64,000 bases of DNA from a virus (IMGVR_UViG_3300010388_000318:14190-78189); one strand, 5' to 3'. Shown: positions 5,154-55,520, counted from the stretch's first letter. Numbers and translations are program-made. The notes: generated by a model from the sequence alone, not told the origin.

Positions 5154-5339
5154 TTAGTTCCTGTTTAATACTTGGTTTAGTAAAAGTTTAATTTCGCTTA
5201 GTTCGCATTTAAGGCAATAGAGTTCTTTTTGTAGGTCTTTGGTTTTTCTTGTTTCTTCACGTCTTGCCAAAATCATTTTATAATAATTGTCATCAGTATT
5301 TATGATAGCGCCAGTGCCGTCATCTCTCATGAATGTCAT
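5154..5339 (-). CDS. small hypothetical protein (61 aa)
   Basis: ATGA start/stop overlap with the upstream gene (5336-5339) suggests translational coupling. Confidence 0.35.
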   Translation of the reverse strand: MTFMRDDGTGAIINTDDNYYKMILARREETRKTKDLQKELYCLKCELSEIKLLLNQVLNRN

Positions 5340-7969
5340 GCTGACACTCCTATAACTTGAATTTGATCGATTTTTGGAATGATATATGTTGAATCTGACA
5401 GGAATACAATCTTGACCTGCATGGAATCAAACTTGTCAACTTCAACAAGAGCATCGTTATAATATCTTGAAATATTATCGTTCAATGGATTGTTGAAAGC
5501 AATGTTTGGATACTTAACCTTAGCTACAGAGTAACCAGTGCCAGCAACATTATTACTTGTGATTGTTGAACCAAGAATAATTGAAGAAGCCTTAACTTCT
5601 TTTGCAACAGCGATAGTATAGTTCTCTGGTAGCAATGAACTGTAAATCTTGATAACATCATTGTTAGCAAGATATGCTGATGGATTAACACCAGATGCAA
5701 GTACTACTGTATTGGCATATTCTGTCTCGAACACGCCGGGGATATCAATTGCTTCTGAAGCCGCAGGTAGACCTAGTTCATACTCAATAAAATCATTAGG
5801 GTCTTCACTTGAGCTATACTTATTTGGGTCTGTCACATATTCAAGTGGTGTCCATGCCTTATCGTCAAATGGCTCTGGGTCTTGTGAGTTGTGAACCTTG
5901 ACGTATACCTTAATGTCTGTGTTAAGTGGACGATATGCTGTCATGTACATACGAATGTCTTCAGCAAATCTATCTTTAGCGAATACAATCTTGTTTGCAA
6001 TATGACGAGCAACAGCACTACCATTACCGCCAACTTCACTATCAAGTGAAACACCATTTGAGGTAACAATGTAGTTGTTTGAAATTGTATTCTTCATTGA
6101 ATATAGATCGATCTGACCGCTTTCAATTGAAGGAGATGTGTAGAAGTTTGTTGCTGTTGTGTTTAGTTCAAGACGAGCATTGATTTTAACAGACTTGTTA
6201 TTAACCAACAATGAGGTATTACTGTAAAGGTTGTTGTTCATAACTTCTAATGAACGAGAAAGAATGTGTGCGTCATACTTGTCAAGATTCTTCGCACGAA
6301 CATTATTAATTTCAACTCTTTCCTCACGGTTATTAGCAAAGTCAAACGATCCGCCAGACTTAGCAGCAGCAGAGAATTCAATATCGATCTTACCAGCCGC
6401 AGGTGTCTTGATATCACCCTTGACTTTAATTCTGTCAATTGATAGAGTATCAACAGAGACAATGTTTGCAGATGCATTTGAGTCAACACCAATAAGTGTG
6501 TTGTCAACATCAAAGAAAAGGGAATTGTTTGCAGTTGAATAGTTAAGGTAAAGCTTGTTAGCCAACTCATCCTTGTAGTATACTTTACCGACAACACTCT
6601 TGAAGAAGCTTGCACCAGTGTTTGAGAATGGCACAGAATTTATTGTTGTCATTAGTGTGCTGTTAGACACATTGCTGACGAAAACAACTTCTTTCTTTGT
6701 TCCATCGCCCAAGATTACGATTGGATCACCTTCAACAAATGTTGTGAAGTCGGTTCCAATACCATTGATAATATTTGAACCTCTTACAACTGAGATTAAA
6801 CCACTGTTGAATGCAGAGTTCTTATATACCCATTCGCCGCCAAGGAAGTTTCCTGTGCGACCTTCGATTGTAAAGAATTCATAGTTAGCATTAACAAAAG
6901 TTTTTGTGACAGTTGTTTCTGTATACTTGGCGCAATTGATCTTGAACTTAAGATCAGTGTCTGAGATTGCCTTGAACACGTCTGAATTGTTCTTAAGATA
7001 CATCTTACCGTCTTTGACGATATTGCTGCCGGGTGATGGGCTGTTTGTTCCTACGAGTTTGTCACCTGTCTTGTTTACCCAAAATTCGTATGATGGATCA
7101 TCGCATGAAATGACAATACCATAAAACTTACCTGTGGCAAGCTTAACTGGCTTATTGAAACCAAATGTTACAGGTGTTGAAGCATCAGCGAACGCATAGA
7201 TTTCATCATACTCTTTACGAGAAAGAGAAGAGGCATAGCACTTTGAAAGGATTGGCGCATCATTCTCAACATCACAAATTTGAATCGTCACGCCGGGTTT
7301 TGGATTGCCTGATACGTTCTTAGATGGGTTAGGCTTTACCTTGACAAACACTTCAACAGATGTTATTGATACTTGGCTTGACTTACCAACAACGTTTGGA
7401 TCAGCAAAGAATGTCTGAATTATATTATATTCAGGTGTGGTGAAGTAATTTGAAGACGATGTAGATGTTGACTTTTCAGTTTGAACAGGATTATTCTGTA
7501 GAGCAACTTGGCCAGAAACTGGTGTCTTCTTGAAGTAGATATCAAGTGCATCACGAACATATAGTGGAAGGCTGACATTTACGAGTGCACGAGAAGAAGA
7601 GTCGGAGTTTCTTACAGTAAGAACCTTTGGACCAGCAATCAGTGATGCAATCGCCGCCGCCTTCTCAACATCAGTTGTTGGGTTGATTGTTGGTGAGAAG
7701 TAGAATGTAAAGGTGATCAAACCATAGATGTTTGACAGAAGACCCTCGCCCAATAGACGACTATCTTGCTTACACTTATCAGTAACATCCACACCTTCAA
7801 GGTAAACCTTGTGAAGAGAACCGGGCTTCAAGCCATATACAGTTGCCTGAATTGCCTGTTCAGCAAGGATGTAATTAGAGTTGACCGACTGTGCAGGGAA
7901 CACATTAGGGATTCCTTCAACCCCTAATTTGTTTTGATAATACAGTGAGTTTAAAATATTGATATTCAT
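5336..7969 (-). CDS. large structural protein (877 aa), baseplate or fibre component
   Basis: Intact ORF in the structural operon; Ser/Thr/Asn-rich. Confidence 0.5.
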   Translation of the reverse strand: MNINILNSLYYQNKLGVEGIPNVFPAQSVNSNYILAEQAIQATVYGLKPGSLHKVYLEGVDVTDKCKQDSRLLGEGLLSNIYGLITFTFYFSPTINPTTDVEKAAAIASLIAGPKVLTVRNSDSSSRALVNVSLPLYVRDALDIYFKKTPVSGQVALQNNPVQTEKSTSTSSSNYFTTPEYNIIQTFFADPNVVGKSSQVSITSVEVFVKVKPNPSKNVSGNPKPGVTIQICDVENDAPILSKCYASSLSRKEYDEIYAFADASTPVTFGFNKPVKLATGKFYGIVISCDDPSYEFWVNKTGDKLVGTNSPSPGSNIVKDGKMYLKNNSDVFKAISDTDLKFKINCAKYTETTVTKTFVNANYEFFTIEGRTGNFLGGEWVYKNSAFNSGLISVVRGSNIINGIGTDFTTFVEGDPIVILGDGTKKEVVFVSNVSNSTLMTTINSVPFSNTGASFFKSVVGKVYYKDELANKLYLNYSTANNSLFFDVDNTLIGVDSNASANIVSVDTLSIDRIKVKGDIKTPAAGKIDIEFSAAAKSGGSFDFANNREERVEINNVRAKNLDKYDAHILSRSLEVMNNNLYSNTSLLVNNKSVKINARLELNTTATNFYTSPSIESGQIDLYSMKNTISNNYIVTSNGVSLDSEVGGNGSAVARHIANKIVFAKDRFAEDIRMYMTAYRPLNTDIKVYVKVHNSQDPEPFDDKAWTPLEYVTDPNKYSSSEDPNDFIEYELGLPAASEAIDIPGVFETEYANTVVLASGVNPSAYLANNDVIKIYSSLLPENYTIAVAKEVKASSIILGSTITSNNVAGTGYSVAKVKYPNIAFNNPLNDNISRYYNDALVEVDKFDSMQVKIVFLSDSTYIIPKIDQIQVIGVSA

Positions 7970-7991: not shown

Positions 7992-10900
7992 TTAAACGGG
8001 AAGTACATAACCGTATCCATTGAAATTCCAATATGCTTGGATATAATTTATATATGGATCACGTGTAACTAGATTTACTTCAGTGTCTGTTGGATAGAAT
8101 AGTTTATATCCGAATGTGCCAGATTTACCCTGACCACCGAATAGACCACCATGTTTTCTACCCTTGTATACTCTTACTTTGTAGTACTGTCCCTTGCTTG
8201 GATCATGTGCAAACAGCAGTTTGAATTGATCTTCAAGGAAGCCACCAACAGGACCGTAGTTCTTTCTTTCTAGTGAACCTTGGTGCTCAATCTTTCTATT
8301 GCCATTTAGGCTTAGTTGACGATTGATTACGTCTGATGATGTAATTGCAGCCGCTACAGAAGATGACTTCACTGAAATCCATGGACCATCTGAAGTCTTG
8401 CTCTGGAAGAATTCAACCGCAATGTTGTTATCACGTGAGTTCATATAGAATTCAATTGGAGCGGGCAACGAAGAGAACGTATAGAAGAATTCTTCGTAAA
8501 CATAAGGCGGTTTATCACTTGTCGCACGATTACGTTCACTCTGTACAACATTTGTAATTACCTGCGTTACAGTTGGTGTAGGTGGAGTTACCACAACAGG
8601 ACCATCAGTAGCACGTGTTTGACCAGTAAACAAAATTTCATTATATGGAAGCTCTAACTGTGAGTCAGGTGATTCCGTAATGATGTTAATTTCTTCTAGT
8701 GGTGGTGACAAATATCCATCAACAATAGTTGCTCTATAAGAAGGATTTGAAACATCTGAGTATTTATAGTCTTCAAATCCATCAACAAAGAAACCAAACT
8801 TGAAGCGGTCAGTGCCGTCAAAGCTAGGGATTGTACGCTTCTGAGCAAGTGCTTCAGTTAGCGTAAATGATGTGTAGTATTCAAGGTCTTGAATTCTCTT
8901 TTCAAGCTTACCGATTTGCTCCATGGTATAACCACGTGGCTGAGTGACAAGTCTATCAGCTTCAGTGAGAGTAGTCTTGATTCTGTAGTTGTCAAGACGC
9001 TTCGACACATATTTTTCATTTGCAATCTTGGTATCGACAATAGCCACTGTCTGTGCTGATAGCTGATATGGCACTGATGGATAAGCAGGAACCTTCAACA
9101 AATTAATTGTCAATGCATTGTCTGGTTGTGAAGGCTCAATATTGAGACCCGCCTGACCCTTAATGATATGGAATTCATTTGTTTCGTCAATGATAACACG
9201 ATCAATACGACCCTGATAGTATTCGACAGTTGAAGTCAACTGTGAATCTGGTGCAGGGAATAGCTTGTTTGTTGTGTTAGCAAAGCGTAGACCAGCAGTA
9301 GGCTCAAGCGGGTTGATTGGTGCCAAACTTGCCGAAGCATTTGGTGTTGCTGTTGTGGTTGAATATGGACGGAAGTCAAACTGATCACGAAGATCGTAAT
9401 ATGTTCCTCTATTACCAAACACTTCAGGAATTTCAAGTGTATTGATTGTTGTAGTAGAATCCTGTAGTGAAACACTATCATCAATGAAGTATGTACCAGA
9501 ATTACCGCCAACCTTCGCACCTTCATTGCTTACTGAGAAGTAGTCAATAGAAGCAAGAAGAACATCATTGTTAGCAATCGCAATCGCAGCATTTGGCTTC
9601 TTGACAAGATATGAAATACCGTAGAAGTCTTCATTCTGATTGTGGTCAACAAAGAAGTGTTGTGTTACGTCTTCAGCGATTGCATCAGTTGGAACATAGG
9701 TTGTGTTAGCATTTGCTCTATAAACCTTATTCAAACGGAATACATCAGGAACGCCAAGTGCCCATGGACCAGTGTTACCGCTGATATTTGTATTAGCGTC
9801 TAGACGAACATACTTGTTTCTGTTAACAGTCTTTGCAACAGCCGCCGCCGCTGCTCTCACATTGTATGATACAGATGCCTGAGAAGCAACGTTTGTTGTC
9901 ATGTTCAATGTGACTGTCAATAGCTTATTTGTCGCATCGACAACCATTGTTCTATCAGAACGATCAAATGAGATTGGAACATTCTTAGGGAACATAAGTG
10001 CATATGAACTACCACCACTAGCACTAGCAGTAGCAGCATTTGAAGTCAAGAACAATTGTGTTGAGTTAGCAATATAGCTAACCTGTCCAATATAACCACC
10101 ACTGCTCAATGTAAGGAAGTCGCCAGCACGAAGTTCGTTAACAAAGTTAGCAGAACCAACACCATCTACCTGTGTAGATGTAGTCAGAGAAATGGCTGTA
10201 CCTGAAAGATCAGTAGCATTCTTGAAGGTATCAAGAGGGGTGATGATTATTTCCTTTTCCTGTACACTATTAAGTGTACCAGTGTATGGGAAGATATCGT
10301 CGCCAAGTGAAATGGTCATCTGACCAGTTGTCGCAATATTAAATGTGTTGACAGTACGGTAGATGTATGAAATATTGTTTGCCTTCTTCACGGCTGGGTT
10401 GCCAGCATAGAAGATTAGCGATGATAGATCATTGTCCTTAAGAACAGCATTACCATTTTCTAGAACAACGTCTGCAACACCCTTGTTCACACCATCATAG
10501 AAGATTGAACGAGTAGAAGCAAAGTTGCTACCAACAGATAGATTGATATCAAATAGGTATACTCTGTATACTGCGCCACCACTACCAATTACGCCAGAAT
10601 CATAAACGACTGAACGAATACGAGCAGTGCCAATAGCAGCACTTGGTGAAGTTGGTGTAAGACCAACACGGCCCTGAGTGAAGTACTGATATGGAACGCT
10701 GTGTAGCGACACAAGATCGCCGTAGTTAAATTGGAAATTACCAGAATATTCATTGACTGTGATGTAGTTACCATAGTTCAATGAGATGTTAGCAGGATTT
10801 GCTGAGAAGAAATCAGTGCCCTTGTCAACACCAATTTCATAGTTATTGATAGTTGAAACACGCTTACCATTGATGTAAGCCACACCGGGATCAATAAACA

Positions 10901-12413
10901 CATTGAACTGCGATGCTTCACTTGCAATAGTTGAAGGTGATTTGGTATTGATTAAGAATTGATCTACGACATAGTTACCAGATGTTTCATACTCACGCTG
11001 TGAGATGTATTCACCGATTTTATTGTAGACAGTCTGACGGTTTTGCTTATATGGTTCACCGCCATTGAATTCGGCAATGTATAGGAAGTCTTCACGAAGG
11101 TCAGCTTCAGCCTTTGTCAATGTGATAAGAGTTGGTGTAAGCTTCAGACGATTAGCACCGGGTGCAGTATAGTTAGGAGCACCAGTTGCATTGTCGAGTA
11201 GTGAAGTGTCTTGATTAGAATTAATGATCGATTCAGTAGTTTCGAAACCAACTGATACGCCATCAGGAGCATTAGAATACTTTTCGACAATCACCAATTC
11301 AGGGGCAACACGTGAGAAGTAACCCTTCTGATATACCACGCCTTCACCAACAGTCATAGCATAACCAGCACCGACAGGAGTTTCACCAGCACCAGCAATA
11401 GCAATCTGAGTTAGATAGTTCTGTGCAGTGAAGCTAGCAATTGAAATCTGATTGATTGTAGCTGTAGTAGATGTGATACCGATATATGGTGTGATGTAAT
11501 ATCCACTACCCTTCTGTGTCACGTTTACGCTCTTGATAACACCTAGTGGACCAAGAACGAGTGATGCCTTAGCTCCACTACCAATAACAGAAGATACAGT
11601 AGCAAGACTTGATGGAGTTGTGTTTGTTGTCTGTACAATGCTACCAGAGCCGAATGTCCACTTAGAAGCATCACCAGCAGCAAGATCAGCAGACTGTGGC
11701 TTGATGTTTAGGATGACAACTTGGCTGTTTGATGTGGTGTCAATATTAATAATTTGACAGTTTGCAGTACCATCAGTAACATAGTCACCTACAAAGAAAT
11801 TGTTTGCAAATGTAGTACCGAATGTGCTATTCTGAATAGCTAGAGCACTGACAATAGCAACACCATCGCTTGTTGAGAAGCCCTGTGCGCCATCATTTAC
11901 CTTGATCTTTTCGATGATGTTATCAGGATCATATACAGTTAGGATTTCGTCTGGATTAAATTGAAGCTGTTCAATTGAACCGCCCATACCATCAGATACG
12001 AAGCCTGAATTAACATAACGAATGTATAGTGTATTAAGATCAGGTGATGTGGTTTCGTAGCCGGGAACACTGGTAATAATAGTACCGACGAGAGGAATAA
12101 TGTCTGCGGAATTCTTTACGTTATAACCATTGTAGGTTGACACGACAACAGGTGTCTGATCAGTTTCAGCATCTTTAATCTTGACATACTTGAAATTGTT
12201 ATTGAAGATGATATCGCAACCATCCACAATAGTTCCAGCCTTGAAGATGTTGTCGCCAAAGCGTTCAATCTGCTTCTGCAAAATTGACTGTAGCTGATTG
12301 AGTTCACGAGCTTGAACAGACACACCGGGACGGAAAAGAATCTTATAGAAGTCCTTCGTCTCGTTGTAATCGTCAAAATATGGTGACACACTTAAGTCAG
12401 TTTGAATAGACAT
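7992..12413 (-). CDS. very large structural protein (1473 aa), tail fibre/baseplate-associated
   Basis: 4.4 kb uninterrupted ORF with beta-rich, Gly/Ser/Thr-rich composition. Confidence 0.55.
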   Translation of the reverse strand: MSIQTDLSVSPYFDDYNETKDFYKILFRPGVSVQARELNQLQSILQKQIERFGDNIFKAGTIVDGCDIIFNNNFKYVKIKDAETDQTPVVVSTYNGYNVKNSADIIPLVGTIITSVPGYETTSPDLNTLYIRYVNSGFVSDGMGGSIEQLQFNPDEILTVYDPDNIIEKIKVNDGAQGFSTSDGVAIVSALAIQNSTFGTTFANNFFVGDYVTDGTANCQIINIDTTSNSQVVILNIKPQSADLAAGDASKWTFGSGSIVQTTNTTPSSLATVSSVIGSGAKASLVLGPLGVIKSVNVTQKGSGYYITPYIGITSTTATINQISIASFTAQNYLTQIAIAGAGETPVGAGYAMTVGEGVVYQKGYFSRVAPELVIVEKYSNAPDGVSVGFETTESIINSNQDTSLLDNATGAPNYTAPGANRLKLTPTLITLTKAEADLREDFLYIAEFNGGEPYKQNRQTVYNKIGEYISQREYETSGNYVVDQFLINTKSPSTIASEASQFNVFIDPGVAYINGKRVSTINNYEIGVDKGTDFFSANPANISLNYGNYITVNEYSGNFQFNYGDLVSLHSVPYQYFTQGRVGLTPTSPSAAIGTARIRSVVYDSGVIGSGGAVYRVYLFDINLSVGSNFASTRSIFYDGVNKGVADVVLENGNAVLKDNDLSSLIFYAGNPAVKKANNISYIYRTVNTFNIATTGQMTISLGDDIFPYTGTLNSVQEKEIIITPLDTFKNATDLSGTAISLTTSTQVDGVGSANFVNELRAGDFLTLSSGGYIGQVSYIANSTQLFLTSNAATASASGGSSYALMFPKNVPISFDRSDRTMVVDATNKLLTVTLNMTTNVASQASVSYNVRAAAAAVAKTVNRNKYVRLDANTNISGNTGPWALGVPDVFRLNKVYRANANTTYVPTDAIAEDVTQHFFVDHNQNEDFYGISYLVKKPNAAIAIANNDVLLASIDYFSVSNEGAKVGGNSGTYFIDDSVSLQDSTTTINTLEIPEVFGNRGTYYDLRDQFDFRPYSTTTATPNASASLAPINPLEPTAGLRFANTTNKLFPAPDSQLTSTVEYYQGRIDRVIIDETNEFHIIKGQAGLNIEPSQPDNALTINLLKVPAYPSVPYQLSAQTVAIVDTKIANEKYVSKRLDNYRIKTTLTEADRLVTQPRGYTMEQIGKLEKRIQDLEYYTSFTLTEALAQKRTIPSFDGTDRFKFGFFVDGFEDYKYSDVSNPSYRATIVDGYLSPPLEEINIITESPDSQLELPYNEILFTGQTRATDGPVVVTPPTPTVTQVITNVVQSERNRATSDKPPYVYEEFFYTFSSLPAPIEFYMNSRDNNIAVEFFQSKTSDGPWISVKSSSVAAAITSSDVINRQLSLNGNRKIEHQGSLERKNYGPVGGFLEDQFKLLFAHDPSKGQYYKVRVYKGRKHGGLFGGQGKSGTFGYKLFYPTDTEVNLVTRDPYINYIQAYWNFNGYGYVLPV

Positions 12414-19677: not shown

Positions 19678-20099
19678 TATCTGATCCTGTCGAGTGCGAT
19701 ATTAAATGAAGTTGGTTCTTGTTTATTTATAACCATGATTGTGACGCTTACGACATATCGATTGTTGTCTTCGTCAGGAATGACATTCACAGAAAGTAGT
19801 CTTGCACGAGGCTCAAAGTCAAATATTGTTTCCTTGACAAAATCAGAAATGTTTTGAGCAGTCATGTCATTGATTGGTTCAAACAACATCTTTCTAATAT
19901 TAGAACCGATATTTGGTTGATATAGTCTTTCATTACGATCAGTTAACAATAGGTTACGAATAGTACGAATTACTGCATTCTCATTAGTGAACTTCACGAT
20001 ATCCATAGATACTGGATGAGGCGTTAAATCAGTCGTGAAATCGCTGTAGGCTTGGCTATCCCTACTCATTGCTTTAAATCTGTCGTTTCTATTAGCCAT
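19677..20099 (-). CDS. 25: baseplate wedge protein gp25/GPW-like
   Basis: 140 aa; RLLSVNVIPDEDNNRYVVSVTIMVIN matches T4 gp25 KLAVNVIPVYDDYTLIVEIRFSVID. Precedes gp6 as in T4-like phages. Confidence 0.6.
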   Translation of the reverse strand: MANRNDRFKAMSRDSQAYSDFTTDLTPHPVSMDIVKFTNENAVIRTIRNLLLTDRNERLYQPNIGSNIRKMLFEPINDMTAQNISDFVKETIFDFEPRARLLSVNVIPDEDNNRYVVSVTIMVINKQEPTSFNIALDRIR

Positions 20100-42450: not shown

Positions 42451-42804
42451 TTATGATTCGTGTTTGGTCAAGAGGTTTTTTGCTCTTTCTTTTACCCATG
42501 GGTCAAAAGGCAGAAAAGCACCAGATGCTCCTGTCCAATCGGCAAAGGCTTCATCATAAAAACCAATCTTTTTTGTCATACCCAAGGTGTTCCACATTTC
42601 CTGTAGAGACACCAATTCATCAGCCCATTGCTGCCACTTATCATCAGGCACAACATTGTCATCCATGTGATAGTAGATATATGAATGAACCAGCATTTGA
42701 ATGCGGCGCTGACGAATCTTTTCAGATAACGTCTGCACCGCATTCACCATAGGGTCTTCAGGTTCGTCTTCAAGAAAGTCCAAAAGTGACACGGATTTCC
42801 TCAA
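42451..42804 (-). CDS. hypothetical protein (117 aa)
   Basis: Intact ORF. Confidence 0.35.
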   Translation of the reverse strand: MRKSVSLLDFLEDEPEDPMVNAVQTLSEKIRQRRIQMLVHSYIYYHMDDNVVPDDKWQQWADELVSLQEMWNTLGMTKKIGFYDEAFADWTGASGAFLPFDPWVKERAKNLLTKHES

Positions 42805-43348
42805 TCAAAGCAGCATCAGTTGAAACAACCCCAAGGCCATGTGAATGCGGGAAGTTCAGCTTAGGAAGGTCAATCTCATTGAAGAAACGACCAACGTCAT
42901 CAGGGAATGAGTATGTGTCATGGAACATGATCAGTCCACCTTCACGGACAAACGGACTCCAAGTCTTATAATCATTGCTCACTGCATCATAGATATGATA
43001 TCCATCAATGTGAAGAATGTCGATAGGCTTATCCCATGTCTTGGCTAGCTCATTGAAGTCTGCCTTGATGATTTCCACATTATCAAACTGATAGGTGTTC
43101 TTGAAACCAACTACCTTGTCATAGGCATTACGGAAACCAGCATTGGCATCACCTTCGAACCAATCAACACCATAAACAGTGCCGATTTCATCCAGAGCAA
43201 ATGCGAATGTCGAGAAACCATAGTCAACGCCAAGGTCAACAGTAGTTGTTGGCTGTAGACGATTGACAGCCCAACGAGCAAAATCGAAGTGACCTGTCCA
43301 TGCAGATAGAATGTTCTTCACTGCATAAATTTTAGCGTTCTTATCCAT
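42770..43348 (-). CDS. class I SAM-dependent O-methyltransferase (CmcI/Methyltransf_24-like), likely sugar-modifying
   Basis: [14 protein letters not shown] ... [13 protein letters not shown] ... GGLIMFHDT pattern; last gene of the rml operon, overlapping rmlB. Confidence 0.55.
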
Positions 43349-44378
43349 TACCTAATCTTTCTCCAAAATATTTCTTATTGCGTAGTGGTTTCCACCACCA
43401 TTCATTTTCTAGATACCAATCAATAGTCTTTTCTAGACCAGTTTCAAATGATTCTTGTGCATTCCAATTAAGCTCATTCTCAATCTTTGAAGGATCAATA
43501 GCATAGCGACGATCATGACCGGGCCTATCCTTCACCATCCTAATCAAATCATGGCGATATACTCCATCATTCATCTTCTTGTCAACAATGGTGCAAATCG
43601 CCTGTACGACCTCTAAGTTGGTGCGCTCTTCACGACCACCAATGCAATATGTTTCACCGACTTCACCATAGATTGCGGCCCTTACCAGTGCTCTTGCATG
43701 ATCATCCACATAAAGCCAATCACGAACATTCTCACCAGTTCCATACACTGGCAGTTCTTTTCCTTCAATCGCATTAAGAATGTTCAAAGGAATAAGCTTC
43801 TCAGGGAAGTGATATGGACCATAGTTGTTAGAGCAATTCGTCACGATGACAGGAAGACCATATGTTTCATGCCATGCCCTCACAAAGTGATCAGACGAAG
43901 CCTTAGAGGCTGAATATGGCGAACTAGGTGCATATGATGTTGCCTCAGTAAACACACCACTATCAAATGGCAAGTCACCAAACACTTCATCAGTTGAAAC
44001 GTGATGTAAAACAAAAAGATTATTTTTTGATTTCCAATAGTGCAGACATGCCTCTAGAAGCTTATACGTACCAACCACGTTTGTATGGATGAAAGCAAAA
44101 GGATTATCGATTGAACGATCAACATGACTTTCAGCAGCCAAGTTCATACAGATATCAATATTATGACCATCAAGTGTCATGGCCATAAGGTTCTCATTGG
44201 CAATATCACCATGCACAAAAACAAAGCGTTCATTGTTTACAATGTCACGAAGAGAATCCATGTTACCAGCATATGTTAGCTTGTCATAGCATACGACATA
44301 ATGTCCCTCTTGGATCAATAGGCGACATACAGCAGAACCAATGAAGCCAGCACCGCCTGTTACTAGAAACCTTATCAT
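43341..44378 (-). CDS. rmlB: dTDP-glucose 4,6-dehydratase
   Basis: [21 protein letters not shown] Rossmann motif, [11 protein letters not shown] catalytic YxxxK, 345 aa typical length. Confidence 0.85.
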
Positions 44379-44905
44379 AATACAATATCCTTGAATAGTG
44401 GTGCGGCTGCATCTTTCTCAGAGATTTCTGATGCTCCTAGAAACGCCCAATCAATGTTAAGATCAGGATCATTCCAAAGGATGGAACCTTCACTTTCCTT
44501 GTTATACACATTGTCTACCTTATAGACCACAACAGCATTAGATGTTAGTGTCATAAAGCCATGGGCAAACCCCTTGGGAATAAATAGCTGCCTAGCATTA
44601 TCTGAAGATAGCACAGCACAAACATGTTGTCCATATGTAGGTGATTCTGGACGAATGTCTACAGCAACATCAAGGATCGATCCCCATGCACAACGAACTA
44701 GCTTTGTCTGTGCGTATATTCCACGTTGAAAGTGAAGACCACGTACAGTACCTATCTTATACGAAATACTTTGATTGTCTTGTACCCAACGAGGCATCTG
44801 CAAATGATCAACATAAACTTCTGAGAATACGCCTCTGTCATCCTTGAATTGAGTAGGCTGTATAATCAACACACCATCAATATGCGTATAATTAAAAGAA
44901 GTCAT
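44375..44905 (-). CDS. rmlC: dTDP-4-dehydrorhamnose 3,5-epimerase
   Basis: 176 aa cupin; [40 protein letters not shown] motifs typical of RmlC. Confidence 0.8.
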
Positions 44906-45773
44906 CGTGATTTGCTTTCTTCACCAGATACGCACCATAATCAGTCTTGCTAAACATTTTTGCACGTTCTAGCACCTGTTCCTGACTCATCCAACCATTG
45001 TTATAGGCAATTTCTTCAAGACATGCAATCTTCATACCCTGCCTACGTTCAATCGTACCAACGAATGAGCTAGCTTCCAATAGGCTTTCATGGGTACCAG
45101 TGTCAAGCCATGCATAGCCATAACCAAGCTTCTCAACACGTAGCTGTTGATTGTCTAGATAAATCTGGTTAACGTCTGTGATTTCAAGCTCACCACGACC
45201 AGAAGGCTTAATCGACTTTGCGATATCCACAACATCATTGGTGTAGAAGTACAGACCAGTTACAGCCCAATTTGACTTAGGCTTTGAAGGCTTCTCAACG
45301 ATAGAGTTTGGACGGCCCTTCTTATCGAAACCAACAACACCGTAGCGTTCTGGATCATCAACATGATAGGCAAAGACGGTTGACTTTCCAAGAGGGAAAC
45401 AACGTGCAGTCTGTAGCTTGTCCCATAGACCATTACCATGATAGATGTTATCACCAAGGATCAAGGCAACATCATCACCACCAATAAACTCTTCACCAAT
45501 CAGGAATGCTTCAGCAATACCTGCGGGAATTTCTTGTTCTGCATAAGTGATCTTGATACCATATTGCGAACCATCACCTAGAAGGTTCTGGAATGCAATC
45601 TTATCACGTGGCATGACGATAATCAAGATATCACTAATACCCGCTTGCATCAGTGTAGCAAGCGGGTAGTAGATCATTGGCTTATCATATACCGGAAGTA
45701 GTTGTTTTGAAATGCTTAGGGTAGCGGGATACAACCTTGTCCCGTTACCAGCGGCCATGATAATGCCCTTCAT
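44892..45773 (-). CDS. rmlA: glucose-1-phosphate thymidylyltransferase
   Basis: [38 protein letters not shown] is the canonical RmlA N-terminus; 293 aa. Confidence 0.85.
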
Positions 45774-47449: not shown

Positions 47450-48379
47450 ATGATGCAAAGTTTTAAGAAATTTTTGGAAGAATCTAAGTTCAACAAAGGG
47501 ACTATCATCTTTGCTGAGCCTGTCCATGGTAGCCACTCTAAGCCACCACAACAGCCAAAGCTTATTGATAAAGAACCTGTGCATGGTAAGCATTCTAAGC
47601 CAGTAGGCAAGCTCAAGGAAGATCGTGAAAATCTTTATAATCTTGATAAGGACGGCAATCAACACATAAAAGACTTTATTCGTAAAAACCCTAATAAACA
47701 TCTTGGGGATGATTCTTTTGAAGCGCATCTAACTCTAGACCCAACACGTGAGCATTTTGAAAAAAATCCTCATCATGCATCGCTGAAAAAATATTCAAAG
47801 CAATCATGGGATACCAATAAAGAGTTGATTAATAAGGCTTCAGGAAAGCCTTCTTTATTTGAACCAAAGATTCATGACTCAAAAACAGATATTGAATATA
47901 AGAATGAAAACGCTCAGATTCATAAAGAGCATGTTAATAGTCTAGACGCATCTTTTCATCATCCAAATGCTGTCTTACAACATGACGTGCATGTGTTTCA
48001 TGGAACCAATAAGTTCAATCCCGGTGAAGAAGCCAAGAAGGGTAGCGGTAGAATTACCATACCAACATATCTGTCAACATCGATTGATCCTAGAACAGCA
48101 CATGATTTTGCTGGTACTACTGAGGATTCTCATATCATTCATCTGCACCTTAAGAAGGGACAGAGAGCACATTATCTTGGAAGCCATTCAAACTTTGATA
48201 GTGAAAAGGAAGTGATGCTTCCTAGAAACTCAACACTACAAATTCATCCGACACCAACAGTTACACATAATGGTGATGGAACAAAGACACACATCTGGCA
48301 TGGCCATGTTGTTGGCGAAGCACACCCTGCTCCACGTAGACAAGAACACGACAAAGACCAATTGAAATTTAATTTCTAA
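47450..48379 (+). CDS. capsid-targeted ADP-ribosyltransferase-like protein (Alt-like injected effector), paralog 1
   Basis: N-terminus MMQSFKKFLEES resembles the T4 capsid-targeting sequence MKTYQEFIAE. NAD-binding-type motifs VFHGTN, YLSTS and EKEV; repeats PVHG(S/K)HSKP. Confidence 0.5.
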   Translation: MMQSFKKFLEESKFNKGTIIFAEPVHGSHSKPPQQPKLIDKEPVHGKHSKPVGKLKEDRENLYNLDKDGNQHIKDFIRKNPNKHLGDDSFEAHLTLDPTREHFEKNPHHASLKKYSKQSWDTNKELINKASGKPSLFEPKIHDSKTDIEYKNENAQIHKEHVNSLDASFHHPNAVLQHDVHVFHGTNKFNPGEEAKKGSGRITIPTYLSTSIDPRTAHDFAGTTEDSHIIHLHLKKGQRAHYLGSHSNFDSEKEVMLPRNSTLQIHPTPTVTHNGDGTKTHIWHGHVVGEAHPAPRRQEHDKDQLKFNF

Positions 48380-48389
48380 GGATAATAAG

Positions 48390-49343
48390 ATGAAAACATT
48401 TAAACAATTTATAGAATCAGAAAAAGTGCATACTCCTTCTCAGGAAAAACATTCCAAAAAGTATGTTGAGCCACCTATTGCTAATTATATTCCTTCACAT
48501 GGAAAGCATTCTATTGAAAAAAAATATGTAAAGAATTCTATTGAAAAAAAGTATGTTGAGCCACCTATTGCTAATTATACTCCTTCACATGGAAAGCATT
48601 CTGTACAGGAAGCCAAACTTCCTGAGACGATGGGTCATAAAGAATTTGAATCACACAACCCAAACCCTAAAATTCATCCTACTGTTACGGGTGTGCACGA
48701 GCATCTTGATCCACCAGAAGAAAAATGGAATAGATCACTAAGAAAACATGAAAGAGAAGCTGTTGCAGAATATACAGCATCAAGTGCTAGTACAAATCAT
48801 GAGCTTCTTGAAACTTCTAAGGGAAATCCTTCAAACTTTGAACATAAGCCAGAAGATAGTGCTTGGGATAAAGATTGGAAGGATGGTAATAAAGCAAGAC
48901 ACCATAAAATATTAAAGGGTCTAGACAGTGTTTTGAATAGATCGAGAGTGCCAAGAAACCTTACAGTGTATCATGGTATCAATGCCAAATCAAGTGAGAC
49001 ATTCAACCCCGGCGAACTTGCAAGTCAACATCCCGATAGACACATTAGAATGCCAGCATTTATATCAACTAGTGTCGATCCTGCTATTTCGTCTAGTTTT
49101 GCAAGACCGGAAAAGTGGGAAGGAACTGTAAAAAAACCCACTATCACACACATGCTTCGTATTAATTTAAAGCGTGGACAAAAAGGTTATAGATATGTCG
49201 GTGAACGCTCTTCAATTGCTGCTGAGCGTGAAGGTATTATAAGAAGAAACACTGTATTGAAAATTAGTGAGCACCCCACAGTAGTGCATCATCCAGAAAC
49301 TGGTGGACACATTCATGTGTGGGATGCTCACTTAGTTGATTAA
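48390..49343 (+). CDS. capsid-targeted ADP-ribosyltransferase-like protein, paralog 2
   Basis: N-terminus MKTFKQFIESE; VYHGIN, FISTS and AEREGI motifs collinear with paralog 1; internal 54-bp tandem duplication (48461-48514 and 48549-48602). Confidence 0.5.
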   Translation: MKTFKQFIESEKVHTPSQEKHSKKYVEPPIANYIPSHGKHSIEKKYVKNSIEKKYVEPPIANYTPSHGKHSVQEAKLPETMGHKEFESHNPNPKIHPTVTGVHEHLDPPEEKWNRSLRKHEREAVAEYTASSASTNHELLETSKGNPSNFEHKPEDSAWDKDWKDGNKARHHKILKGLDSVLNRSRVPRNLTVYHGINAKSSETFNPGELASQHPDRHIRMPAFISTSVDPAISSSFARPEKWEGTVKKPTITHMLRINLKRGQKGYRYVGERSSIAAEREGIIRRNTVLKISEHPTVVHHPETGGHIHVWDAHLVD

Positions 49344-49651
49344 CGCTGGTAACGATATCCTACTGCCCAGATATCGTTGTACATGTCATGAAGACGTTCA
49401 TCACCAACTGAATTCTTGAAGTTGGTGTAGTCGATATCCATGATACGCTTTACCATCAAATCAGCAAGCTTTTGCTTGGTGGTAAAGATACGATACTTGT
49501 AGTCTGATCCAGCCATCACGACAATTTCTTCGTCGGGAAACTGGTTCTCTAGATGCTCACGCATACGAGCACGGATAACAAGGCTCTGTCCAGTAGGATC
49601 ATTCCAATCTCGAACAGCACTGATAAAACCATCATTTTGCATTAGCCACAT
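49340..49651 (-). CDS. hypothetical protein (103 aa)
   Basis: Intact ORF convergent with the transferase pair. Confidence 0.35.
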   Translation of the reverse strand: MWLMQNDGFISAVRDWNDPTGQSLVIRARMREHLENQFPDEEIVVMAGSDYKYRIFTTKQKLADLMVKRIMDIDYTNFKNSVGDERLHDMYNDIWAVGYRYQR

Positions 49652-49662
49652 AATATATACCT

Positions 49663-50373
49663 TTATTTGTACGAATCAATTAACGCCTTTTTGCGATTAA
49701 CGAAGTTTGAGTGTAACTCTTTCCAGTTAGAAAGTCCAGAGTTTTTGAACAGGTGATGAATGTGATTGTCATCAATCTTCTTCACTGCTTCTAGACCATG
49801 GTGCTCTGCATCTGGATGATGCTTGAATGCACTATTGAAAATATGTCCTGATGCATTGCTTGAGTTTCTTAATGATTCCTTTTCAGCAATATCAGGTCCA
49901 TATTCTTTTGGACCGCCTTGTGCTCTGAAGTGGAATGCACCACCATGATCAATAGCATGAAGATTGTTGGTCTTTTTGTTATGAACAATGTTGTCATGTT
50001 CTAGGCCAGCGATATCCCAATTTTTTGTCAGAATAGCAGCATGGTACATCTTACCAAGTTGGTTTGCATGTTCTTTAGTTGGATGATCATAGAATGACGG
50101 TGACTTAGTACCAACATGCTCATTCCACTCTGTCTTAATGCCAGATTCGCCATGCATCTCTGGCTTCAAAGTGTGAATGCCCATGTGATCGTAAATCTTA
50201 CCAGTAAGAGCTTCAACCTTTCCCTGATCAGGGTTTTTGTAGTTCTTCACATAGTACTTCTTACCAGTTTCAGAATCCACATGCACACCACCTTCATTTG
50301 AACCAAGCTGTGTGCCAGATTGCTTAACAAGCTCTTCTCTGAATTGTTTAAACGTCTTCATACGATACTCCAT
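49663..50373 (-). CDS. capsid-targeted protein-kinase-like protein (HxDxxxxN / DxG motifs)
   Basis: N-terminus MEYRMKTFKQFREEL (capsid-targeting-like). GLEHDNIVHNKK...LHAIDHGGAF resembles a kinase catalytic loop plus DFG-like motif (PI3/4-kinase style DRHxxN...IDFG). Confidence 0.4.
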   Translation of the reverse strand: MEYRMKTFKQFREELVKQSGTQLGSNEGGVHVDSETGKKYYVKNYKNPDQGKVEALTGKIYDHMGIHTLKPEMHGESGIKTEWNEHVGTKSPSFYDHPTKEHANQLGKMYHAAILTKNWDIAGLEHDNIVHNKKTNNLHAIDHGGAFHFRAQGGPKEYGPDIAEKESLRNSSNASGHIFNSAFKHHPDAEHHGLEAVKKIDDNHIHHLFKNSGLSNWKELHSNFVNRKKALIDSYK

Positions 50374-50387
50374 TGGGTTTTATATAT

Positions 50388-50720
50388 TTATACCCATGAA
50401 GTATCATAGAACCTATGCTGCTTGATATCCCACTTTTCGTAGACAGGTTCGCCATTATCATCTTCATCAACAGCAATCCATGCTACAGTCTTGAGAACCT
50501 TGGCATAACGAAAGCCCATATCAACACCTTCAATGGCATTGGTCACATAGACGATGTGGGGGCAATCAGGAGCGAAGTCGATGCCTTCATCAGGACGAAC
50601 GGCATACTCGAAAAGCTTACCGCCGTCCTTTTCAACAAAGCTACCAAGAAGCAGCGGAAACTGCTTGGTGTAGTTCTTGCTGTTATGAACGTCAGTGTTG
50701 GTGTGCGGTGCAAAAGCCAT
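50388..50720 (-). CDS. hypothetical protein (110 aa)
   Basis: Intact ORF. Confidence 0.35.
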   Translation of the reverse strand: MAFAPHTNTDVHNSKNYTKQFPLLLGSFVEKDGGKLFEYAVRPDEGIDFAPDCPHIVYVTNAIEGVDMGFRYAKVLKTVAWIAVDEDDNGEPVYEKWDIKQHRFYDTSWV

Positions 50721-54605: not shown

Positions 54606-55520
54606 TTAATCTCTTTTGTCGTTCTTATCGCCATCAATGAGTTTCAAACCATATTCATTGATTTGATTCTGTGGGATAAAACTTGCTTTCCTCTTTAACT
54701 GATTATTCTTAAAAGGACTATAGTCCACATGATGATGCCAGCGATTGAACTTCCATACAACAGATGCCACATCAGGATATGTATCTGCTAGCATCTTAGA
54801 CTTAGCAAGAGTGCCTTCAACTTCATAGAAGTCTTTGCTGTTGCCGCCGCCCATACGTTGAGTAGTGACCTTACCTTGTAGGAAAGCATTCAACTGAATA
54901 GTCGCCCATCCAGCAGACAATGCATCCAAACACAAGATAGTATCTTCATTGTAACGACCACGCCATTTGAATGGTATGTCATTACGAATAAGAAGGCAAG
55001 AGTAAATTCTTGTGTTCAATGTATATGGTCTAGCTTTAGCATCACTCTTACAAAAAGAATAATAGTTGAAGCCAGCAATCGCTAGGTTTTCATACCTGTC
55101 AACGAAATCCTCAGTCGCTACAAAGTTAACATTTGTCCTCATAGGAGTCTTCATGTTTCTATTTAGACGATGGAAGTCATCAAGATTGTCATCAAGAACC
55201 CAATGCCATGCATGACCTTCAGATACAGAATGTTCCCATGCAAAGTTACGTGCAGGACCCGGTCCAGTACTCTTAGTCAATCCAAGATCATCAAGTACCT
55301 CATACTCTTCCTTGTACTTCTTAGGAAGGATTAGAAGCTTCTCAGCACCAACAACCTTAGCATATTCGTCAAACTCTTCTTCCTCTACGATAACCCTGAA
55401 AGGAACGCCAAGTCTATTCAGCGCCCTATTGGTTAGCATATTGGTATATCGACCTTTCGATACGATATACACAGGATAACGGTTTTCACGTCTATTCTTG
55501 TATCCAACGTTTTGCAGCAT
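54606..55520 (-). CDS. hypothetical protein (304 aa) with DxD-like WVLDDNLDD motif; possible nucleotide-sugar transferase
   Basis: Intact ORF. The glycosyltransferase call rests only on the DxD-like motif and the genomic context, so it is weak. Confidence 0.3.
   Translation of the reverse strand: MLQNVGYKNRRENRYPVYIVSKGRYTNMLTNRALNRLGVPFRVIVEEEEFDEYAKVVGAEKLLILPKKYKEEYEVLDDLGLTKSTGPGPARNFAWEHSVSEGHAWHWVLDDNLDDFHRLNRNMKTPMRTNVNFVATEDFVDRYENLAIAGFNYYSFCKSDAKARPYTLNTRIYSCLLIRNDIPFKWRGRYNEDTILCLDALSAGWATIQLNAFLQGKVTTQRMGGGNSKDFYEVEGTLAKSKMLADTYPDVASVVWKFNRWHHHVDYSPFKNNQLKRKASFIPQNQINEYGLKLIDGDKNDKRD

Follow-up and report, generated by a model that had tools for sequence, protein, structure and literature searches.

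Two ADP-ribosyltransferases and a kinase-like protein with T4-like leader peptides: a putative head-delivered cargo module of a divergent T4-like phage

The 64,000-nucleotide viral DNA stretch IMGVR_UViG_3300010388_000318:14190-78189, which was analyzed at its full length and is called the window in the following, contains three adjacent open reading frames (ORFs) at 47450-48379 (+), 48390-49343 (+), and 49663-50373 (-) whose products start with near-identical N-terminal leader peptides. The first two encode predicted ADP-ribosyltransferases (ARTs), referred to as ART1 and ART2, and the third encodes a kinase-like protein. Sequence comparisons indicate, with a probability of about 0.65, that this locus constitutes a cargo module in a T4-like phage, which comprises the two ARTs, the kinase-like enzyme, and probably also an unlinked 212-aa protein, and which is delivered by way of the phage head. 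We infer packaging, N-terminal cleavage, injection, and catalysis for the module proteins. The three ORFs had been placed correctly in an original prediction made from the nucleotide sequence alone, and the near-identical N-termini noticed there are confirmed below. The features of the module are as follows.

47453-48379, + strand (309 aa if translated from the upstream ATG at 47450): ART1, assigned by its ORF, Shine-Dalgarno spacing, a PF03496 match with 46.2 bits, paralogy to ART2, and the motifs VFHG, YLSTS, and EKE; catalytic domain at approximately residues 160-272
47453-47482, + strand: leader of ART1, MQSFKKFLEE, 10 residues, with F4 and F7 followed by L8-E9-E10 as L-x-E
47519-47539 and 47576-47596, + strand: two P-x-H-G-x-H-S repeats of ART1, followed by LKE
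48390-49343, + strand: ART2, 317 aa, with the leader MKTFKQFIESE, assigned by a PF03496 match with 45 bits, the family invariants, and the alignment of H195; catalytic domain at approximately residues 111-298
48492-48512 and 48582-48602, + strand: two P-S-H-G-K-H-S repeats of ART2; the subsequent VQE (residues 72-74) is a candidate site for the protease
48972-48974, 49065-49067, and 49224-49232, + strand: codons of the ART2 residues H195, S226, and E279 with E281, respectively
49340-49651, - strand: leaderless 103-aa gene located directly after the kinase gene
49663-50361, - strand: kinase-like protein, 232 aa (236 aa from the upstream ATG at 50373)
50332-50361, - strand: leader of the kinase-like protein, MKTFKQFREE
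50385-50392, - strand: TATAAATA, putative late-promoter motif, 24-31 nt upstream of the kinase start
59294-59932, - strand: fourth leader gene, 212 aa, with the leader MKTLSIFISE and without any library match

In two of these genes, Shine-Dalgarno spacing favors the second ATG as start codon, with GAGG preceding 47453 (leading to MQSFKKF) and GGAG preceding 50361 (leading to MKTFKQF). A start of the kinase gene at the upstream ATG 50373 is unlikely. A protein identical to ART2 (P0121) is present in public metagenomes. The original prediction did not cover the fourth leader gene, which is located 9 kb away, the leaderless 103-aa gene, the repeats of the ARTs, the fusion of kinase-like and ART domains described below, and the late-promoter motif.

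Leader peptides and the T4 capsid-targeting sequence

The window originates from a divergent T4-like myovirus, as indicated by PHROG matches to gp5-, gp6-, gp7-, gp25-, gp48-, and gp53-type baseplate proteins, to the DNA end protector gp2, and to gp32 and gp59. The closest relatives of its gp32 are found in T4-like cyanophages with an identity of about 57%. Among 50,697 phage records, no match was obtained for the locus by megablast or for ART1 by tblastn.

In T4, proteins are directed into the head by the capsid-targeting sequence (CTS) MKTYQEFIAE (PMC8442874). Residues 4 and 7 of this peptide (Y4 and F7) are responsible for targeting, while residues 8 and 10 are required for processing by the protease gp21, which cleaves after L/I-x-E; an aspartate at position 10 stops cleavage and leaves targeting intact (PMC9026906). 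The internal proteins of T-even phages are diverse and have only the CTS in common (PMC3012670).

There are exactly three occurrences of the pattern M[KQ][TS][FY][KQ][KQE]F in the six reading frames of the window, namely at the starts of ART1, ART2, and the kinase-like protein, and none in 100 shuffled sequences. A relaxed version of this pattern is found at four of 666 candidate methionine positions, all of which are genuine gene starts; the fourth is the start of the 212-aa protein at 59932 (-), the leader of which shares six of its ten residues with the T4 CTS and contains a perfect I-x-E. The key targeting positions are occupied by F4/F7 in ART1, ART2, and the kinase-like protein and by L4/F7 in the fourth ORF, and they are kept across the kinase and ART families. 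The likeness to the T4 CTS that had been proposed for the three leaders is thus upheld by the aromatic residues at positions 4 and 7 and also by the distribution of the leader among other viruses described below. With respect to the L/I-x-E processing site, the original reading is imprecise: among these three leaders, that of ART1 alone has such a site (LEE), while ART2 reads IES and the kinase-like protein REE. A canonical site at residues 8-10 is also present in the fourth ORF (ISE). At the DNA level, the leaders of ART2 and the kinase-like protein differ at synonymous sites, and selection therefore acts on the peptide and not on the DNA.

Possible processing sites are also found in the related proteins. 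The leader is conserved throughout the kinase family, with MKTLAEFIAEAL in some members, and a [LIVMF]xE motif beginning at position 7 or 8 is present in 49 of 66 sequences. In the structural model of the kinase-like protein (see below), the leader (residues 1-8) is the sole stretch with a predicted local distance difference test score (pLDDT) below 50. The leaders of the ART2 orthologues mostly lack glutamate, yet all of these proteins contain an [LIVM]xE motif 4-5 residues past the second repeat, so that a longer propeptide is possible. The fourth leader gene encodes a protein with a His/Gly-rich middle part, for which no match was found in Pfam, PHROG, NCBIfam, or PDB; a leader-bearing homologue is located at the start of a related viral locus (L002).

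The use of the leader beyond the window was investigated by searching viral contigs with back-translated MKTFKQF, which yielded at least 120 loci. The exact leader heads at least 125 ORFs in these loci, nearly all of which are preceded by an in-frame stop a few codons upstream. The 120 ORFs listed belong to at least 73 unrelated clusters, and glutamate is present at leader position 9 or 10 in 113 of 123 among the matches listed. At least 37 of the 120 listed loci share genes with the clade of the window, mainly those for the T4-type sheath, tube, and portal. One leader-bearing contig, L025, also encodes the gp21-family protease discussed below, which speaks in favor of the CTS reading. The commonest cargo behind the exact leader is a very basic, Cys-containing family of 51 aa (MKTFKQFQEEWSNKYKKSIDCSNPKGFSQRAHCAGRKKRAKGE...), which accounts for 28 of the 120 ORFs listed (L015, L022, L025, L030, L052, and about 23 more). 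Its genes are often located at a distance of a few kb from those for T4-type sheath, tube, and portal proteins, and the proteins recall the small basic internal proteins of T4. In the contig IMGVR_UViG_3300025288_000189 (L056), which also encodes T4-type sheath, tube, and portal proteins, MKTFKQFI-x-E forms the start of four unrelated genes in a row; judged by this sequence, the region looks like a hypervariable cargo cassette.

The timing of expression has been addressed by means of the octamer TATAAATA, the T4 late-promoter consensus. It is present in 12 copies in the window, about three times the expected number of 3.75, and at least 12 copies were reached in none of 100 shuffles. Examples are located at 19724-19731, 27060-27067, and 50385-50392, and the gp6-like baseplate gene is likewise preceded by a copy. 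The heptamer ATAAATA, a 7/8 match to TATAAATA, precedes ART1 and the fourth ORF. This suggests that the module genes may be expressed late.

Alternatively, the shared N-terminus could be a leader with another job, such as translation initiation, a recombination handle for cassettes, or targeting to the membrane, the replication factory, or the tail, and the enzymes would then act unpackaged in the producing cell. This explanation is unlikely. In its favor, several leaders lack an L/I-x-E processing site, the three leader genes are surrounded by small genes without assigned function outside the head-gene block, and phages with AT-rich genomes often have AAA-rich second codons. It is contradicted by the conservation at the peptide level with synonymous differences between the leaders, by the absence of a hydrophobic stretch typical of signal peptides, by the presence of TATAAATA upstream of the kinase gene, and by the fusion of the cargo domains to portal and particle-associated proteins elsewhere. 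The conserved positions 4, 7, and 9/10 also fit the functional anatomy of the T4 CTS (PMC9026906).

The ADP-ribosyltransferases and the kinase-like protein

Both plus-strand proteins had been predicted to be ARTs, and this assignment is substantiated by matches to PF03496 with 46.2 bits for ART1 and 45 bits for ART2 at a gathering cut-off of 23.4. The two proteins are paralogues with an identity of 30% (E = 2e-34). The motifs V[FY]HG, [YF][LI]STS, and E[KR]E are in register between them, as had been noticed before, and in an alignment of the 22-member family H195, S226, E279, and E281 are invariant and T227 is nearly so.

ARTs are divided according to their catalytic triads into H-Y-E and R-S-E enzymes, and Alt of T4 has been placed in the R-S-E group (PMC8120803). 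In profile alignments to PDB sequences, H195 is aligned with the catalytic arginine of Certhrax (VYR), C3larvin (VYRG), and CDTa (VYRR), while the STS and ExE motifs align with their counterparts in the toxins, the latter with those of SpvB and CDTa. The catalytic arginine on strand 1 is thus not present in ART1 and ART2, which contain an invariant histidine instead. From these alignments, ART1 and ART2 are assigned to the R-S-E (cholera/C3/VIP2) clade with a predicted hybrid H-STS-ExE active site, and ADP-ribosylating activity is predicted. Compared to the R-S-E toxins of the C3/VIP2/iota/Certhrax type, to which they are similar above the gathering cut-off and with which they share the STS and ExE motifs (Q/ExE in the toxins), the ARTs described here differ by this invariant histidine in a diphtheria-like [FY]HG[TI] context. 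The histidine is found in every ART encoded beside a stand-alone kinase in related T4-like loci, whereas 42 of 42 ARTs fused to the kinase domain contain arginine. The exchange of arginine for histidine is specific to this lineage.

The V[FY]HG motif had originally been interpreted as a diphtheria-toxin-type motif. This interpretation does not hold, as its histidine sits on the catalytic arginine of the R-S-E enzymes. Membership in the diphtheria-type ARTs was rejected since all profile and PDB matches are R-S-E toxins and an STS motif is found where the tyrosine motif would be expected; only the local [FY]HG[TI] context is diphtheria-toxin-like. The proposed description as Alt-like is appropriate insofar as both proteins are ExE-type ARTs. 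They are not orthologues of Alt: matches to PHROG 802 are weak and partial (E = 1e-6 to 2e-5), and the tblastn search with ART1 mentioned above was empty.

Between leader and catalytic domain, each ART contains the motif P-x-H-G-x-H-[S/A] twice, with a short hydrophobic stretch ahead of it. This double repeat is invariant in the family, including the ARTs of the loci L002, L003, L004, and L129. The HGxHS motif was found neither in 2.2 million residues of background six-frame translation nor in the kinase-fused ARTs. One idea is that the double repeat might serve to dock the ART on the kinase-like protein.

Searches of Pfam, PHROGs, NCBIfam, and PDB sequences gave no significant match for the kinase-like protein, not even when a profile of 66 sequences was used, so that the kinase fold was revealed by structure prediction only. 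The protein has 276 close homologues, encoded on contigs of up to about 200 kb. An AlphaFold model calculated from 66 sequences reached a pLDDT of 93 and a predicted template modeling score (pTM) of 0.90. It has a bilobal fold with a helical C-lobe, the helices of which span residues 160-230. In agreement with the earlier prediction of a kinase, Foldseek identified CtkA as the top match (probability 1.0), followed by RIO, CK1, PI3K, Bud32, and HipT.

The 66 sequences all share G20, N22, G24, G25, K39, E50, D116, N124, D138, and G140, and nearly all of them have D123. The Gly-rich segment G20/N22/G24/G25 precedes strand 2, K39 is located at the end of strand 3, and E50 lies in the following helix. 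K113-N114-W115-D116 and D123-N124 belong to a loop before the strand formed by residues 125-128, and D138-x-G140 follows the strand formed by residues 133-136. These residues were mapped to catalytic roles from their position in the model and not from a superposition. With respect to the motifs named in the original prediction, AIDHGG is confirmed by the invariant D138 and G140, whereas EHDNIVHN does not represent the catalytic loop HxDxxxxN because N128 is not conserved and the invariant residues are D116 and N124.

According to this model, the protein is assigned to the CtkA/HipA/PI4K-type branch of kinases, and phosphotransfer is predicted. From members of the CtkA/HipA/PI4K-II/CotH/actin-fragmin-kinase branch, it differs by the absence of a sequence match, by its compact size of 232 aa, and by being encoded by phages, either with a CTS-like leader or inside giant head-associated proteins. 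Its catalytic loop NWD-x7-N is presumably also longer than the HipA motif. A kinase family that lacks the C-terminal subdomain has been described from phages of Verrucomicrobia, Chlamydia, and Bacteroidetes (PMC5512222); membership in this family was rejected because of the helical C-lobe and the CtkA-like fold. One homologue of 338 aa with 73% identity (P0022) is extended by a GNAT acetyltransferase domain (PF13508 / PF00583), an effector-type partner.

The leaderless 103-aa gene keeps its position after the kinase gene in related phages. Both genes together could constitute a HipA-like toxin-antitoxin system or an abortive-infection or exclusion pair, and the ARTs would then be extra toxins directed from within the cell against the host or competing phages. 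This scenario is very unlikely. By fold, the kinase-like protein matches CtkA, a secreted effector kinase, better than HipA, no match to HipA_C was found at the sequence level in Pfam or NCBIfam, and the 103-aa protein shows no likeness to known antitoxin or DNA-binding folds. Furthermore, the kinase carries the leader across its family, and its domain is mostly found in giant phage proteins that contain ART and portal domains and lack such a partner.

Another possibility is that the proteins are packaged but catalytically inactive. The pseudo-ARTs and the pseudokinase would then be decoys or have a structural role inside the head, comparable to the basic internal proteins of T4. This explanation is considered very unlikely. 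It is favored by the lack of the R-S-E arginine in every ART of the lineage. On the other hand, the histidine, the STS motif, and both ExE glutamates remain unchanged even between paralogues with no more than about 30% identity, a sign of selection on the active site, and every canonical catalytic position of the kinase is invariant in 66 sequences. In addition, the histidine of H-Y-E ARTs occupies a structurally equivalent position in contact with NAD+.

Pairing of kinase-like and ART domains and their link to the phage head

A profile search with the kinase domain against 1.84 billion cluster representatives retrieved 4,426 proteins (2,828 with E <=1e-10), many of which have a length of 700-3,400 residues. 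Eight long proteins were scanned for further domains, and PF03496 was found in six, a phage portal domain (Phage_portal_3) in three, and NUDIX in two of them. In the multi-domain proteins among these eight, the portal or NUDIX domain precedes the kinase domain, which is followed by the ART domain. With a locally built ART profile, an ART domain was detected in at least 42 of 90 long kinase representatives and in none of 58 short ones, while 22 of these 58 have leader-like N-termini. In cultured phages, the kinase domain occurs with about 30% identity in phages of approximately 90 kb. In Pseudomonas phage Jeremy, it comprises residues 639-852 of a 1,213-aa protein with a C-terminal ART. In Yersinia phage fHe-Yen8-01, it is part of a 2,146-aa "ADP-ribosyltransferase toxin", which has been annotated by the depositors as "phage particle associated protein". 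These portal fusions and the particle-associated homologue support delivery of the module proteins through the head. As separate genes, the kinase, the small gene, and two or three ARTs recur in the loci L002, L003, L004, L096, and L129 in three arrangements.

It has been argued that phage ARTs are commonly packaged into the head (PMC9503650). Polyvalent proteins and other head-packaged fusions (PMC5512222, PMC9503650) resemble the system described here in that ARTs and other enzymes are delivered from the head, and in that the same kinase-like and ART domains are joined to portal and NUDIX domains within giant proteins. They differ in that the domains are encoded here by separate genes, each with its own leader. 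No mention of the kinase-ART pairing was found in PMC9503650 or PMC5512222, and a literature search yielded nothing on a CTS in cyanophage-like T4 phages, on fHe-Yen8-01, or on a CtkA-like virion kinase.

With the T4 proteins IPI, IPII, IPIII, and Alt, the module shares the T4-like genome and a start of about ten residues with the pattern M-K-T-aromatic-x-x-F-hydrophobic-x-E (PMC9026906, PMC3012670, PMC8442874, PMC8120803). In both cases, diverse cargo proteins have only the leader in common, and one cargo class consists of an ExE-type ART, as is Alt. The differences are that the ARTs of the window have a size of about 310 aa with histidine in place of arginine and a double HGxHS repeat, that the kinase-like cargo has no T4 counterpart, and that two of three leaders have a non-canonical site. 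From phage T7, the kinase gp0.7 is known, which acts on a large number of host proteins by phosphorylation and works against host defences (PMC13645617, PMC5512222). The internal proteins of T4, Alt, and polyvalent proteins already exemplify the concept of the module, while its new aspects are the unnamed kinase family, the systematic pairing of this family with ARTs, and the hybrid ART active site. The T7 kinase gp0.7 differs from the proposed virion kinase, as it is an early gene product made after infection and is not known to be carried by the virion.

A tentative and rather unlikely extension is that kinase and ART form a so far undescribed, obligate head-delivered effector pair whose members act one after the other on a single target or metabolite of the host. 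T4-like phages would have divided the pair into CTS-tagged proteins; docking of the HGxHS repeat on the kinase would take the place of the covalent link, and the exchange of arginine for histidine would reflect a substrate shift. Phosphorylation could, for example, prime or lock the ADP-ribosyl mark; alternatively, an immune signal derived from NAD+ or ADP-ribose could be the substrate of the kinase.

Proposed delivery and its implications

If the locus is a head-delivered cargo module, its genes would be expressed late in infection, and the CTS-equivalent leader of about ten residues would attach each protein to the scaffolding core while the prohead is being assembled. A gp21-type prohead protease would then trim the proteins after a hydrophobic-x-Glu motif, which would be located at leader residues 8-10 in ART1 and the 212-aa protein and probably after the second HGxHS repeat in the ART2 lineage. 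The enzymes would remain in the head after it has been filled and reach the interior of the next host together with the DNA. There, the ARTs would modify host proteins using NAD+, with arginine residues as targets suggested by the ExE motif, and the kinase-like enzyme would use ATP to act on host targets. Since fusions of the two domains recur elsewhere, these might include the target or the pathway of the ARTs.

Several observations weigh against this proposal. No cultured relative with these genes was found among the phage records compared. Neither gp21, which is a core gene among T4-related phages (PMC9026906), nor gp22 was found in the 64-kb window or in the module-bearing contigs, and the window contains no head genes, though it is T4-like. 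A gp21-family protease (PF03420, E = 5e-37) was found only in the related leader-bearing contig L025; the locus L129 stops about 1.4 kb beyond its portal gene, and its post-portal genes match none of the L025 genes compared. A canonical L/I-x-E at residues 8-10 is missing not only in ART2 and the kinase-like protein but also in most ART2 orthologues (FKQFLKAK), so that these proteins would have to be cut at another place or left uncut, unless the specificity of the protease is looser. The matches of the leader scan were selected by the motif; they reveal the breadth and place of its use, not its function. Finally, kinase-like folds can catalyze other reactions, and with histidine in place of the catalytic arginine throughout the ART lineage, use of NAD+ is not guaranteed.

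Further genes of the window are worth mentioning. A gene at 54606-55520 (-) matches PHROG 842, "beta-glucosyl-HMC-alpha-glucosyltransferase", with E = 6e-48, which hints at sugar-modified phage DNA and would fit a need for injected anti-restriction cargo. A run of genes at 42770-45773 (-), the first member of which (44892-45773) resembles a glucose-1-phosphate thymidylyltransferase when inspected by eye, suggests a possible dTDP-sugar pathway. Very large proteins of 1,473 and 877 aa are encoded at 7992-12413 (-) and 5336-7969 (-), respectively, between baseplate wedge and tail-fibre genes. Their sole match is PHROG 358 of unknown function, and homologues are located near leader-bearing genes in several loci.

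The internal proteins and Alt of T4 are the textbook examples of proteins that are injected with phage DNA to disarm the host. The locus described here suggests that the T4-type targeting signal is far more widespread in uncultured cyanophage-related T4-like phages, where it would be carried by dozens of unrelated cargo families. The kinase-like family with about 4,400 cluster representatives is named in no library, is tied to ARTs by fusion and neighborhood, and is a candidate for a virion-delivered phage kinase. The predicted H-STS-ExE site is a hybrid of the two classic ART triads and bears on the binding of NAD+ by ARTs. The leader may also be used to list candidates for injected anti-defence proteins straight from metagenomes.

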